The translations under genes were made by a program, and so were the position numbers. Positions 53,110-57,704 of a stretch of DNA of 60,166 nucleotides are shown here, piece by piece (the stretch's first letter is position 1; each line of letters starts with the position of its first letter). This DNA comes from Gammaproteobacteria bacterium (GTDB lineage Bacteria > Pseudomonadota > Gammaproteobacteria > Enterobacterales > GCA-2746155), in contig JAUUZN010000002.1 in assembly GCA_030589945.1 (NCBI GenBank), positions 1 through 60,166 on the forward strand. Direction: 5' to 3'. Below the pieces are notes generated by a model, which saw only the letters and a program-made list of their open reading frames with translations, was not told the DNA's origin and did not search any database.

Positions 53110-53123
53110 TTGATCTAAATCAA
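53110..53123 (+). promoter_or_regulatory. FNR/DNR box of the heme-type TonB receptor
   Basis: Perfect TTGAT-CTAA-ATCAA, with -10 TACTAT at 53146-53151 (class II spacing). Confidence 0.88.
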
Positions 53124-53196
53124 CTCTAGAAATTATTGAAAGAATTACTATGCCGACAGTTGTAAGAACACAGCAATTATTGAGAGGGAATAATTA

Positions 53197-55389
53197 ATGT
53201 ATAAATTTTTTACGTTAGCAGCCTTAGGCCTGCTGATAAGCTTTATGCCGAGTTCTGTTTTACTCGCCGAAGACGATTCCGGTCGTGATACAGACGAAAA
53301 TACAGTGGTGGTGATCGCCAACAAACAGTCACGAACCGTTTTTGAAGTGGTTGGGGCGGTATCAATTATCGATGCTGAGTCAATCGCCATAACCAATAGT
53401 GAAAATTTAGCTGATGCTCTTCGCTATGAAAGCAATATTGACATGGAGAATGCAGGCGCTCGATTTGGTTCTTCAGGTATTAATATAAGGGGTATTGGCC
53501 AAAATAGAGTCGCTGTTGAAGTCGATGGTGTGTCCAATGCCAAGCAGTTTTCGATTGGTTCCTACTCCAATGCGACTTCAATATTTCCTGAAACAGATTT
53601 AATTAAACGTATAGAAATACTTAATGGACCGGCTTCAACTCTTTATGGAAGTGATGCCATTGGTGGCATTGTCTCGATTCAAACTTGGGATCCAGTTGAG
53701 TTAATTCAAAAATCATCCGCTGAGAGATATTCAAAATTACGCATTGCTTATGATGGCAAGAATCAAGGACAGGCATTATCGGCCATTACTGCATGGCAAT
53801 CTGAACAATTTGATTCAATGGTGTCGGTAACGACTCGCCAAGGTAAAGAGTTGCTAAATCATGATTCAATCACTACTCCTGCTGATTCTGTTGATTGGTC
53901 TGAAAATAATATTTTCACTAAATTTGTATGGAATACCAATGAATCAGATGTTTTAAGGATCAGTTTAAACGCATCAAATCGAAAACAGGACACAGAAATT
54001 AATTCATTTCTTGGTCAAGAGCGATTTTCAAGAACAACAGAGTTAATTGGTAATGATGCACAGGATAATTATAAAGTTATTGCGAATTATGATTTTTCCT
54101 TAGATAACAATTGGTTTGATGACGGCTTATTCAAAGCCTATTACGGTGCGACTAGTTTTGAACAGACTACCAATGAACTGCGTTCTTCACGCAGAGGTAC
54201 ACCACTTGCCCAATATCGATATTTTGAATATCAACAGAGTGAGGTGGGTATTGAGCTTAATTTAAATAAAACGCTCAATTCAGATAATGCTACTCACAGT
54301 ATGATTTTTGGCATTGACATAAATTATGCGTCAATTGAAGAACTAAGAGATGGCTCTGAGACAAACCTAACAACCGGCATTACTAATACGAGCATCCTCA
54401 GTGAGGAATTTCCAAGACGAGATTTTCCCAATTCAGACGTTGATACTGTGGGTTTATTTGTTCTGGATGAGATAAAGATAGACGGCACGCCTTGGACATT
54501 AATACCTGCGATAAGAGTTGATCATTATCAGCTCAGTCCATCTCGGGATAGTCTTTTCGATGCCAATGGTACTGATACTGAAATTGTGTCAATTAGTGAG
54601 ACTGACTTTTCTCCAAAGTTGGGTGCTATGTATGAATGGTCGGACAATACCAATGTCTACTTTCAATACGTTCACGGATTTAGAGCACCACCCTTCGATG
54701 ACGTAAATATTGGTCTTAATATTCCGTTGTTTAACATTAAAGCAATCGCTAATCCAGATTTGAGGTCAGAATCTTCAGATGGCTATGAAATAGGCCTTAG
54801 AACAAAATCAGAGGATCAGTACTTTGAAGCCACAGTATTTTTAACAAATTACCAAGACTTTATTGAGTCAAAAGCAATCATCGGAATCGAGCCAGAAACA
54901 GGAGCATTACTATTTCAGTCGCGTAATATTGAAGAAGCAAAAATTTCTGGTGTTGAACTATCGCACCGTTGGCAAATAGGCCCCCAACTTAAAAGTTATT
55001 CAACCTTATCGACAACTCGTGGTGACAATGAAATTACAAATCAGCCATTGAACTCAATATCACCTGCTAAATTTGTCCATAACCTTGAATGGACCGGCGA
55101 TGATGGTCATTGGTCTGTTAATCTTTATTCTAGTTTTGTCAAAAAAGTTTCGAGAGTTGATGAGACAAATAATGACTACTTCAAACCATCTGGCTATGCA
55201 GTTTTTGATCTATTTTATAATTATAATTTTAGTGATAAGCACCATATCCAGGTGGGTTTATTCAATTTAACCAATAAAAAATATTGGAACTGGCAACAGG
55301 TCAAAAATTTCTCAACCAATGAAACAATCATTGACTCTTTGTCACAGCCATCAAGGACACTATCGGTTTCCTATCATTTATATTTGTAA
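53197..55389 (+). CDS. TonB-dependent heme/hemoprotein-family receptor
   Basis: IEILNGPASTLYGSDAIGG plug, INIRGIGQNRV, GFRAP...NPDL loop, GLFNLTNKKYW. Confidence 0.88.
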   Translation: MYKFFTLAALGLLISFMPSSVLLAEDDSGRDTDENTVVVIANKQSRTVFEVVGAVSIIDAESIAITNSENLADALRYESNIDMENAGARFGSSGINIRGIGQNRVAVEVDGVSNAKQFSIGSYSNATSIFPETDLIKRIEILNGPASTLYGSDAIGGIVSIQTWDPVELIQKSSAERYSKLRIAYDGKNQGQALSAITAWQSEQFDSMVSVTTRQGKELLNHDSITTPADSVDWSENNIFTKFVWNTNESDVLRISLNASNRKQDTEINSFLGQERFSRTTELIGNDAQDNYKVIANYDFSLDNNWFDDGLFKAYYGATSFEQTTNELRSSRRGTPLAQYRYFEYQQSEVGIELNLNKTLNSDNATHSMIFGIDINYASIEELRDGSETNLTTGITNTSILSEEFPRRDFPNSDVDTVGLFVLDEIKIDGTPWTLIPAIRVDHYQLSPSRDSLFDANGTDTEIVSISETDFSPKLGAMYEWSDNTNVYFQYVHGFRAPPFDDVNIGLNIPLFNIKAIANPDLRSESSDGYEIGLRTKSEDQYFEATVFLTNYQDFIESKAIIGIEPETGALLFQSRNIEEAKISGVELSHRWQIGPQLKSYSTLSTTRGDNEITNQPLNSISPAKFVHNLEWTGDDGHWSVNLYSSFVKKVSRVDETNNDYFKPSGYAVFDLFYNYNFSDKHHIQVGLFNLTNKKYWNWQQVKNFSTNETIIDSLSQPSRTLSVSYHLYL

Positions 55390-55403
55390 TATCGAATGTT
55401 GGT

Positions 55404-55460
55404 TTGATATAGGTCAATATATTGCTTTAAAAGTAGGTCTAAAATCTTGATTAAGATAAA
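55404..55460 (+). promoter_or_regulatory. Two FNR/DNR-like boxes and a -10 element upstream of nirS
   Basis: TTGAT-ATAG-GTCAA (55404-55417), -10 TAAAAT (55440-55445), TTGAT-TAAG-ATAAA (55447-55460). Confidence 0.78.
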
Positions 55461-55574
55461 TATATTATGTCGGGTGTGAATTATTTTGTCCTGACCCAAT
55501 GAATTAATTTAACAGTAATTAGAAAAATAAAATCATAAAAATAGTTCTTAAATTTTAAAACTGGAGAGTCATCA

Positions 55575-57704
55575 ATGAATATCTTTAAAACCTCCCTACT
55601 TATCACTGCATTGACTGCAGGGTTAGGTGCCACTTCATGTAGTAATGCAGAAGACAGTGCAGCAGCCCATAAGGCAGAAATGCTAGCAGGCTCAAATCTA
55701 TCAGCAATGTTAGAGCAGGGAAAATCTTTATTTGATAATAACTGTGCGGCCTGTCACCAGACCACTGGATTGGGTATGGCGGGTGTGTTCCCACCATTAG
55801 CTGGTTCTGATTACTTAGTGGCAGACAAAATGCGAGCTATTAATACCGTCATTGGTGGCTTGAGTGGTGAGATAACCGTCAATGGTAAAAAATACAACGC
55901 TGTCATGCCGAACTTCTCATATCTTAAAGATGATGAAGTTGCGAGTATCGTGACTTACGTGATGAATAGCTGGGGTAACAAAGGCTATAACGTCGATGCT
56001 AAGGATGTAGCAAAGGCTAGAAAGAATACCGCTGCAGTTCCGACGGGTGCTCCGTCTGACCATCCAGGTCGTACCAGTTCTGAAGCAGGGTATGAAGGAG
56101 CTCCCTCTGGTATTGATCCACAAAGCGCTGTTCAAATGATTACTACAGACGGACCCAAAATGACCGTTGCTGAAGGTAAGATAGCAACAAAGATATTCTT
56201 TGAGCGATGTGCTGGTTGTCATGGTGTTCTCAGAAAAGGCGCTACGGGTAAACCATTGACTACTGACATCACTCGCCCCAAAGGTACAGAGTACCTGAAG
56301 ACGATGATTACTTATGGTTCTCCTGCAGGTATGCCGAACTGGGGTACTTCTGGTGATTTAACTAAAAAAGAAATAGACATCCTCGCTCGTTTCTTACAAC
56401 ACGAGCCTCCAGTACCTCCAGAGTGGGGTATGGATGCGATGAAAGATTCTTGGACAGTTTTTGTTAAGCCAGAAGACCGTCCTAAAAAGAAGATGAACAA
56501 TCTGAATCTGGAAGATATCTTTTCAGTGACATTAAGAGATGCGGGTGAAGTCGCTTTGATTGATGGTGCGAGTAAAGAAATTATTACCATTCTAGAAACC
56601 GGTTATGCAGTACATATCTCTCGTGTATCAGCTTCTGGGCGTTATATCTTTGTCATCGGACGTGATGCTAAAATCGACCTGATTGACCTCTACATGAAGA
56701 CTCCAAAGATTGTTGCGACCATTAAAGTAGGTTTAGAAGCTCGTTCTGTTGAGACATCCAAGTACAAGGGTTATGAAGACAAGTATGCGATTGCTGGTGC
56801 CTATTGGCCTCCACAGTTCACCATCATGGACGCTGATACTTTAGAGCCTCTAAACATCGTATCAACACGTGGCATGACCGTTGATACTAACGAGTATCAT
56901 CCTGAGCCACGAGTTGCAGCAATTGTTTCGTCACATGAGCATCCTGAATTTATCGTTAATGTTAAAGAAACAGGCAAAGTGTTATTAGTTGATTACAGTG
57001 ACATTGAGAATCTATCTGTGACTACTATCAATGCAGCTCGTTATCTTCACGATGGTGGTTGGGATAGGACGCATCGTTATTTCTTAACAGCGGCAAACAA
57101 GTCTAACAAGATTGCAGTTATCGATTCTAAAGATCGTAAATTGACAGCCTTGATTGATGTCGACAAGATCCCTCACCCTGGTCGTGGTGCTAACTTGGAT
57201 GATCCAAAATATGGACCAGTTTGGGTAACCAGTGCCCTTGGTAATGACAAGGTCACCTTCATTGGCACAGACCCTGTAAATCATCCTAAGAGTGCATGGA
57301 AAGTAGTGCGAGTACTCAAAGGCATGGGTGGTGGTTCACTGTTTGTTAAGTCTCACCCCAAGTCTAGTAATCTATGGGTTGATGCTCCACTGAACCCTAC
57401 CAAAGAGTTCTCTCAAGGGATTGCAGTATTTGATGTGAACAACCTTGAAGCTGGTTTCGAAGTTCTACCCATTGCTAAATGGGCTGACATTGGAGATGTA
57501 GGCGCACAACGTGTTGTACAGCCTGAATACAATGCAGCAGGTACCGAAGTTTGGTTCTCAGTGTGGAATGCTAAAGATCAAGAATCTGCCATTGTTGTGG
57601 TCGATGACAAGACACGTAAGTTGATTAAAGTAATCAAAGATAAGCGTCTCATCACTCCAACAGGTAAATTCAATATTTTGAATACGGTAGATGATATCTA
57701 CTAA
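55575..57704 (+). CDS. nirS: Cytochrome cd1 nitrite reductase with lipoprotein signal and extra N-terminal cytochrome c
   Basis: [44 protein letters not shown] and ITPTGKFN motifs, plus an extra CAACH...AVMP domain. Confidence 0.96.

Follow-up and report, generated by a model that had tools for sequence, protein, structure and literature searches.

How does a bacterium use a cytochrome cd1 nitrite reductase (NirS) when the genes for making its cofactor appear to be missing? NirS requires heme d1, and the genes for d1 biosynthesis usually adjoin nirS. The locus that raises this question lies in a 60,166-nt stretch of gammaproteobacterial DNA (‘the window’, meaning the whole stretch that was analysed), which is contig C207 of a 3.27-Mb metagenome-assembled genome (MAG; 224 contigs, 92.4% complete). 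Here, nirS stands directly behind a gene for a heme-type TonB-dependent outer-membrane receptor. The answer we favour, by a little more than an even chance, is that heme d1 is scavenged across the outer membrane by this nirS-linked receptor, in an organism that is itself unable to make d1. The features of the pair, in window coordinates, are the following (aa, amino acids).

53110-53123, no strand: perfect FNR/Dnr-type box, TTGATCTAAATCAA, with its centre ~80 bp before the receptor ATG
53146-53151, + strand: −10-like hexamer TACTAT, which would put the FNR box near −41.5 (class II)
53197-55389, + strand: PhuR-like heme-type TonB-dependent outer-membrane receptor, 730 aa, with Plug and TonB beta-barrel domains; proposed heme d1 importer
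55404-55417, no strand: second FNR/Dnr-type box, TTGATATAGGTCAA, with 1 mismatch, 164 bp before the nirS start
55575-57704, + strand: cytochrome cd1 nitrite reductase NirS, 709 aa, with a fused N-terminal cytochrome c
55707-55973, + strand: extra N-terminal cytochrome c domain of NirS (residues 45-133, CAACH at 57-61; PF00034, 73 bits)
56187-56396, + strand: canonical NirS heme c domain (residues 205-274, CAGCH at 212-216)
56505-57686, + strand: heme d1 beta-propeller of NirS (residues 311-704; PF02239 Cytochrom_D1, 487 bits)

The question only arises if the reductase truly depends on d1, and its sequence reads as that of a canonical d1-dependent enzyme in which every d1 ligand residue checked is kept. 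Residues 171-709 match Pseudomonas aeruginosa NirS (1NIR/1BL9) with 862 bits, and the two proteins are ~70% identical as estimated by eye from the printed alignment. R321, H347, R363, H492, H534 and R537 align with P. aeruginosa R156, H182, R198, H327, H369 and R372, and Y173 aligns with Tyr10 (positions counted by hand in the printed alignment); all of these aligned residues are identical. We take P. aeruginosa H182 to be the proximal His of d1, H327 and H369 the distal catalytic His, and Y10 the N-terminal Tyr.

What sets this NirS apart is its fused N-terminal cytochrome c, a feature that the initial annotation of the window had overlooked. The additional region spans residues 18-154 and resembles the C-terminal cytochrome that is tethered to some copper nitrite reductases (3ZIY, 6QPV; E ~1e-34). 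Two CxxCH motifs are present in all 56 full-length NirS of this long form that were compared, and in 28 of the 56 the signal peptide ends in a lipobox-like motif. The window NirS reads LGATSC there (55575-55650), so that its Cys22 may be a lipobox cysteine. These motifs suggest that many long NirS, in contrast to the soluble enzyme of P. aeruginosa, are lipoproteins.

Is heme d1 made elsewhere in the cell? A PF02239 search of the whole genome returned two proteins, both NirS-type with cytochrome c, and thus neither NirF nor NirN. The best NirJ match in the genome (TIGR04051) scored 35.8 bits against a cut-off of 515, and siroheme decarboxylase of the NirDLGH type (PF17805) gave 0 matches. The only uroporphyrinogen methyltransferase (SUMT) is a 469-aa cysG-type frame on contig C116; no separate search was made for NirC, a small cytochrome c. 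Ordinary heme should be made, with no heme auxotrophy, because hemH is present. HemS/ChuX (PF05171) was not found in this 92%-complete genome. The initial annotation had described the window nirS as stand-alone, which holds with regard to d1 genes (none of those searched for is in the window or genome) and fails with regard to nirS itself: a second, canonical NirS of 541 aa, which it had missed, is encoded on contig C194 (locus L005). On C194, positions 5367-9230 hold this nirS, then a fusion of a NirT tetraheme cytochrome and an EB_dh-like heme domain (594 aa), then a cupredoxin. This nirS is likewise without d1 genes nearby, and the same nirS-nirT/EB_dh block occurs downstream of the receptor in Colwellia and Thalassotalea.

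Relatives of the same order gave a similar picture. Four genomes with close NirS homologues (G021, which is one contig, G143, G147 and G091) have neither NirJ nor PF17805 (0/4), and a fifth genome, G110, has both. A receptor homologue with 33-35% identity adjoins nirS in three of the four (G021, G143 and G147), each time in another orientation. The NirJ search left out G069, G090, G163 and G005, and the receptor search left out G110. Altogether, the whole-genome search that the initial annotation had proposed turned up no d1 pathway elsewhere in the organism’s own genome or in those relatives with complete or closed genomes that bear the pair. Within the genus, G005 contains receptor-like DNA downstream of a canonical short nirS, at a contig end (contig C696, 149-766 and 2984-4528), and receptor placement therefore varies inside the genus.

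The linkage between receptor and nirS reaches well beyond this order. With a receptor profile built from four receptors, 80 loci were retrieved from contigs representing one genome per species. Nearly all belong to Gammaproteobacteria (one is a MAG labelled Phycisphaerae), and the carriers include Lysobacterales MAGs, Marinicella, Alcanivoracaceae, Wenzhouxiangellaceae, Woeseiaceae, Steroidobacteraceae, Kangiellaceae, Arenicella, Halioglobus, Colwellia, Thalassotalea, Rehaibacterium, Elongatibacter and Lentisalinibacter. Denitrifiers known in pure culture belong to some of these families, among them Steroidobacter denitrificans and Wenzhouxiangella AB-CW3, the latter described with NirS in PMC7691419. 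A full-length long nirS (NirS 63-82% identical) lies 17-473 bp from the receptor in 60/80 loci, and in another 3/80 the long nirS is cut by a contig end. A canonical nirS lies 0.4-4.2 kb downstream of the receptor in 9/80 (Colwellia, Thalassotalea). The remaining 8/80 are without nirS: six are contigs that end close to the receptor, and two (L091, L092) have full 6-kb flanks. That is, nirS is present in 72 of the 80 receptor loci and the long form is directly adjacent in 63, in agreement with the co-occurrence that the initial annotation had proposed as a check on this receptor clade. The order of the genes is not fixed: among the 60 full-length pairs, the receptor precedes nirS in 41, the genes converge in 11, nirS precedes the receptor in five and they diverge in three. 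The identities of receptor and NirS to their window counterparts co-vary (Spearman 0.83, n=56).

The genes found around these pairs point the same way. The families that recur there are Crp/Fnr regulators (in 20 loci), NorB (13), NorD (8), NorQ (7), TonB/ExbB (8) and HemN (7), and the ten annotated neighbour families include no binding-protein or heme ABC-transporter gene. The marks of a classical heme-uptake locus (a Fur box and an adjacent binding protein, ABC transporter or HemS) were not found. The context of the pair is denitrification, not heme uptake. Two further neighbours recur. An Alginate_exp (AlgE-like) outer-membrane barrel of ~410 aa lies near the pair in 25/80 loci (e.g. L041, 1166-2380) and might serve as an anion channel or offer another route of uptake. 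A protein of 188 aa with a hemerythrin domain is encoded between receptor and nirS, on the opposite strand, at L047 (8281-8847, − strand) and in six other Colwellia/Thalassotalea loci; possible roles for it are the sensing of O2 or NO, or repair.

Searches for d1 genes were made in the genomes behind 36 of the 80 receptor loci. Twenty-nine of these genomes have the receptor together with a long nirS, and among them NirJ was found in 0/29 and PF17805 in 0/29. A single D1-domain protein is encoded in 27 of the 29; of the other two, G225 encodes two long NirS, and in G213 a weaker D1-domain protein accompanies the first. The 29 include the single-record chromosomes L041, L045 and L074 and the isolates Marinicella marina (S1101), Elongatibacter sediminis (CH-27), Lentisalinibacter salinarum (X77) and Rehaibacterium terrae (DSM 25897).

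A sample drawn independently of the receptor gave a second view. It consisted of 400 genomes of at least 90% completeness, spread evenly over the class, and 67 of them (own genome excluded) encode Cytochrom_D1 proteins, mostly three to five each. The sampled genomes are related to one another, and the counts are therefore descriptive, without a statistical test. NirJ scored above the cut-off in 64 of the 67 nirS genomes, with 542-657 bits, which shows that the search is sensitive. Three genomes are NirJ-negative, namely G442, G574 and G622, to which the PF17805 search did not extend. They alone have just one D1 protein, encoded in a long open frame (707-764 aa). In two of them, G442 and G622, the receptor directly adjoins nirS. 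Among the 64 NirJ-positive genomes the receptor profile matched only one, G617, where the score is lower (443 bits) and 2.8 Mb separate the match from nirS. The receptor thus goes with missing d1 genes, as the initial annotation had proposed it might: it adjoins nirS in 2/3 NirJ-negative genomes and is found, unlinked, in 1/64 NirJ-positive ones.

What kind of receptor is it? Its sequence contains a signal peptide, a TonB-box-like NTVVVIA, a plug, a barrel of the 22-strand type, and the FRAP (residue 495) and NPDL (residue 519) motifs. It scores 367.4 bits against TIGR01785 (TonB-hemin; cut-off 316.85), which places it in the heme/hemoglobin receptor family. The closest solved structure is P. 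aeruginosa PhuR (8THE, 258.8 bits), and the match to ShuA is weaker. Membership of the BtuB family was rejected (TIGR01779, 106 bits against a cut-off of 600). In ShuA, HemR and HasR, axial His ligands sit in the plug apex and the FRAP-NPNL loop. The corresponding loop here, FRAPPFDDVNIGLNIPLFNIKAIANPDL (residues 495-522), contains neither His nor Tyr, as the initial annotation had noticed. Across 79 aligned members of the clade, no column of the plug or the FRAP-NPDL loop reaches 30% His, and the sole conserved His is H367, in the barrel. The missing His of loop and plug does not exclude tetrapyrrole binding, because PhuR itself reportedly uses His/Tyr for heme. No other heme-type receptor was found in the organism’s genome by tblastn. 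The window encodes a second TonB-dependent receptor of 807 aa (2656-5079, − strand), of a siderophore-type subfamily with a score under the cut-off, which has just the plug region in common with the nirS-linked receptor.

The regulation predicted for the pair is anaerobic. Perfect FNR boxes number two in the window against 0.28 expected, a count reached in 5/100 shuffles, and one of them is the box upstream of the receptor. The initial annotation had placed it at class II spacing: the box itself stands, and the class II geometry of the predicted promoter depends on the −10-like hexamer and would hold if that hexamer is used. A scan for consensus sigma-70 promoters and terminators found no more sites than in shuffles. 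Because a second FNR/Dnr-type box precedes nirS, that gene may have an anaerobic promoter of its own. In the related loci, FNR boxes (at most one mismatch, at most 250 bp upstream) precede 30/75 receptors and 35/74 NirS-family genes, compared with 14/489 other open reading frames (ORFs); the NirS-family set includes a few NirF and the control ORFs (at least 250 aa) include some spurious ones, which makes this a rough control. An FNR-like protein of 252 aa with an N-terminal C-x2-C-x5-C cluster is encoded on contig C34; a 250-aa ORF in the window (14427-15179), considered as fnr, was rejected as a DsbD_2 protein. Fur control of the receptor locus was likewise rejected: the best match to the 19-bp E. 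coli consensus is 11/19, which equals the window background, so that the Fur match is as weak as first described. No sequence sign was seen of iron regulation at the receptor, which would have spoken against d1 import, and control looks to be of the FNR/Dnr type. The other perfect box of the window (6485-6498) lies just ahead of ccoN (6643-8055), a classical FNR target, in a ccoN-led cbb3 oxidase cluster (6485-14191) of which ccoN was identified and the rest (ccoOQP, ccoGHI) was assigned from ORF sizes alone.

Taken as a mechanism, heme d1 scavenging would run as follows. At low oxygen, FNR/Dnr-type regulators would turn on the receptor together with nirS. Denitrifiers that produce d1 would release free heme d1 into the environment, and the receptor would bring it into the periplasm. 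There, the imported d1 would enter apo-NirS that already carries its c-hemes, a step that would proceed without NirF or NirN. Because NirS maturation takes place in the periplasm, the cell could do without an inner-membrane transporter. The fused N-terminal cytochrome c would replace a separately encoded electron donor and make NirS self-contained; with such a built-in donor, receptor and long nirS would therefore form a compact two-gene module for nitrite respiration. More speculatively, the lipobox-like signal might tether NirS near the receptor.

Several points weigh against d1 scavenging. The binding and transport of d1 by the receptor, and a free natural pool of d1, are assumptions of the proposal. 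In P. aeruginosa, NirF is needed for holo-NirS; NirF is absent here, and loading would therefore have to be unassisted. Absence cannot be proved from a MAG in 224 contigs, which is why relatives were examined, and no NorB of the cNor type was found in that MAG. Candidates for nor genes in it did not hold up: the ‘NorQ/NorD’ matches are CbbQ/CbbO beside RuBisCO, and a weak NorB match on contig C144 is an aa3 oxidase. Nor does every NirJ-negative genome have this receptor. G091 has a different, 655-aa TonB receptor beside nirS, and G574 is without the receptor, with an Alginate_exp-type barrel (L111, 7190-8422) 2 bp after nirS and NnrS nearby. There is also a weak minority signal for Fur, with Fur-like matches of 13-14/19 upstream of 7/75 receptors, 2/74 NirS-family genes and 4/489 other ORFs.

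The most direct objection comes from Colwellia, where the receptor is not confined to non-producers, a fact that the initial annotation had also missed. Five Colwellia/Thalassotalea genomes were searched: the Colwellia genomes G231 and G233 carry the receptor along with NirJ, NirDLGH, NirF and NirN, and G230, G232 and G234 have no NirJ, NirDLGH, NirF or NirN. At L052, L058 and L061, a nirC-nirF-nirDL-G-H-J operon diverges from the receptor; judged by locus content, L052 (Colwellia) thus also combines the receptor with a full d1 operon. At L047, L063 and L060, unrelated genes (RecQ-like helicase, GST, Ppx) occupy the place of the operon, and the receptor, the hemerythrin-domain gene, nirS and nirT/EB_dh are retained. 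The d1 operon therefore came or went beside a receptor-nirS block that was kept. Producers that carry a receptor have a precedent in B12 producers that retain BtuB. A further objection concerns Thalassotalea castellviae W431, in whose genome nirS and the receptor were found, and NirJ and PF17805 were not. One passage of PMC11165706 says that this strain showed nitrite reductase activity in API 20NE; another passage of the same paper says that it reduced nitrate to nitrite. If NirS reduces nitrite there in pure culture, auxotrophy fails for W431.

Could the receptor simply take up ordinary heme, or other iron, for anaerobic respiration, with its adjacency to nirS a matter of co-regulation and with d1 obtained by another route or NirS inactive? 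The score above the TIGR01785 cut-off, PhuR as the closest structure, the receptor in d1-producing Colwellia, the Fur-like matches (13-14/19) upstream of 7/75 receptors and G574, which does with another outer-membrane protein, would all sit well with such a role. We still consider it unlikely, given that the window receptor is without a Fur box, that heme ABC-transporter and HemS-type genes were not found among the annotated neighbours or in the genome, that hemH leaves no heme auxotrophy and that neither plug nor FRAP-NPDL loop has a conserved His. Moreover, NirJ-positive nirS genomes should need iron equally, yet just 1/64 has a receptor match, and the tight linkage persists through four gene orders. 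A different way out is that NirS is loaded with a tetrapyrrole made by the cell itself (heme b, siroheme, or d1 from a non-homologous pathway) and that the cargo of the receptor is unrelated. To our knowledge, the introduction of the oxo groups in the d1 pathway has no assigned enzyme yet, which leaves room for new chemistry, and cysG and hemH are present. Such a route would need an entire replacement pathway, since none of the 29 pair genomes has a homologue of the decarboxylase, NirJ, NirF or NirN; it would have to serve a d1 pocket unchanged from P. aeruginosa NirS, and it leaves the conserved receptor linkage unexplained. We rate it as decidedly improbable.

It is barely credible that d1 genes are present and escaped notice because of an incomplete MAG, mis-binning or a failed search. 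At 92.4% completeness and in 224 contigs, the organism’s own genome lends this idea some weight, as do the many relatives that are MAGs; the genes are absent, however, from the one-contig G021, three single-record chromosomes and four isolates as well, identical searches detect NirJ in 64 of 67 other nirS genomes, and the place beside nirS where d1 genes usually lie is here 60 kb of contiguous housekeeping genes. Finally, the pair might not serve nitrite respiration at all: it could be an outer-membrane-anchored sensor of NO or nitrite, a detoxifier, or a processor of a tetrapyrrole imported by the receptor. NirN, a paralogue of NirS, is a tetrapyrrole dehydrogenase and offers a precedent, the lipobox-like signal occurs in 28/56 long NirS, and NorB was not found in the own MAG. 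Against these stand the kept catalytic His pair and Tyr10, the nor genes and Dnr-type regulators that adjoin many loci, and an identity of 63-82% between NirS across families, which points to a constrained respiratory enzyme; another function is therefore very unlikely.

The setting of the pair is an ordinary chromosomal one, as judged by its housekeeping flanks and an even G+C across the window (0.36-0.44). The pair is flanked by these two genes:

50729-52915, − strand: glcB
57740-59116, − strand: ppnN

Beyond them lie cmoA, cmoB, queA and a ChaN-like gene. Within the genus, a DNA comparison was made for the pair as an insertion between glcB and ppnN; G004 has both genes, on separate contigs. 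Two metatranscriptome runs from the same study contained next to no sequence words of the stretch. The ChaN-like protein (Cofac_haem_bdg, Tiki superfamily; 47125-48150), 5 kb upstream of the receptor, was considered as a part of the module and rejected, as no homologue occurs in any of the 80 related loci. Elsewhere in the window, 32826-34901 (− strand) encodes an unusual 691-aa fusion of an ExtP/cytochrome b6-like N-terminal part and an HdrA-like part, and 15218-17191 (− strand) a 657-aa PabB (aminodeoxychorismate synthase component I) with a C-terminal CoA pyrophosphatase-like (Nudix) region. On contig C185 of the same genome (L118, 890-5501) are genes for the RuBisCO large subunit, CbbQ and a CbbO-like VWA protein, and this cold-seep organism may fix CO2.

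Scavenging by one organism could be part of something larger. We give an even chance to the view that heme d1 is a shared good, and that a widespread, transferable module of the receptor and a cytochrome-fused, often lipid-anchored NirS allows nitrite respiration with a cofactor made by others. With the same even weight, its carriers would be Marinicella, Woeseiaceae, Steroidobacteraceae, Wenzhouxiangellaceae, Kangiellaceae, some Colwellia/Thalassotalea and the present cold-seep lineage. The gene nirS is the standard marker of cd1-type denitrifiers. If the view is true, nirS surveys count organisms that are unable to denitrify alone and nirS counts overstate autonomous denitrifiers; some ‘strict aerobes’ with nirS would be conditional denitrifiers, which would explain nirS and nor in supposed aerobes that thrive within denitrifying consortia. 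Marinicella, regarded as strictly aerobic in culture, was abundant in a denitrifying biofilm, with nirS and norBCQD transcripts there, according to PMC6697039; these observations fit d1 uptake. If the view is true, the reduction of nitrite in sediments, seeps and reactors would rest in part on the exchange of a cofactor between species, and tetrapyrrole cross-feeding, known for B12 and heme, would come to include a respiratory cofactor of nitrogen cycling. The receptor would be the first candidate heme d1 transporter. Isolates that bear the pair exist, which makes the idea directly testable in culture.

NirS, a PhuR-like receptor and FNR/Dnr boxes are each of known kinds; no description was found of their combination, in which a genome without d1 genes has a nirS-linked receptor lacking the usual His ligands and Fur control, together with a cytochrome-fused NirS. 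In the open-licence PMC and bioRxiv literature we found nothing on heme d1 uptake, scavenging or auxotrophy, or on a nirS-linked TonB receptor, a result that could differ for subscription journals. With P. aeruginosa NirS, the window enzyme shares the c-heme site, the proximal and distal His, Tyr10, the Arg residues of the d1 site and an upstream FNR/Dnr-type box; it differs in its added N-terminal cytochrome c, a possible lipoprotein signal and a TonB receptor as a constant neighbour. Unlike the P. aeruginosa nirSMCFDLGHJEN operon, the window nirS has no adjoining nirM, C, F, D, L, G, H, J, E or N. The cytochrome-fused copper nitrite reductases of Ralstonia pickettii (3ZIY) and Pseudoalteromonas (2ZOO) are also nitrite reductases with a built-in electron donor, and their tethered cytochrome is similar (E ~1e-34 and 4e-26, respectively). 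In those enzymes, however, the catalytic module is copper and the cytochrome C-terminal, whereas here the module is cd1 and the cytochrome N-terminal.

The receptor has the plug and barrel, the FRAP and NPxL motifs and the TIGR01785 score of PhuR, ShuA and HemR, and is set apart from them by an FNR rather than a Fur box, by the lack of hemS/TUV-type neighbours and by its linkage to nirS. In its proposed working, the system would resemble B12 salvage through BtuB, in which auxotrophs import a complex tetrapyrrole of foreign make: a costly modified tetrapyrrole would enter via a dedicated TonB receptor, and producers, too, may carry the receptor. The window receptor belongs to another family than BtuB, its cargo would stay in the periplasm with no BtuFCD-like system, and its expression would be governed by FNR/Dnr-type regulation in place of a riboswitch.

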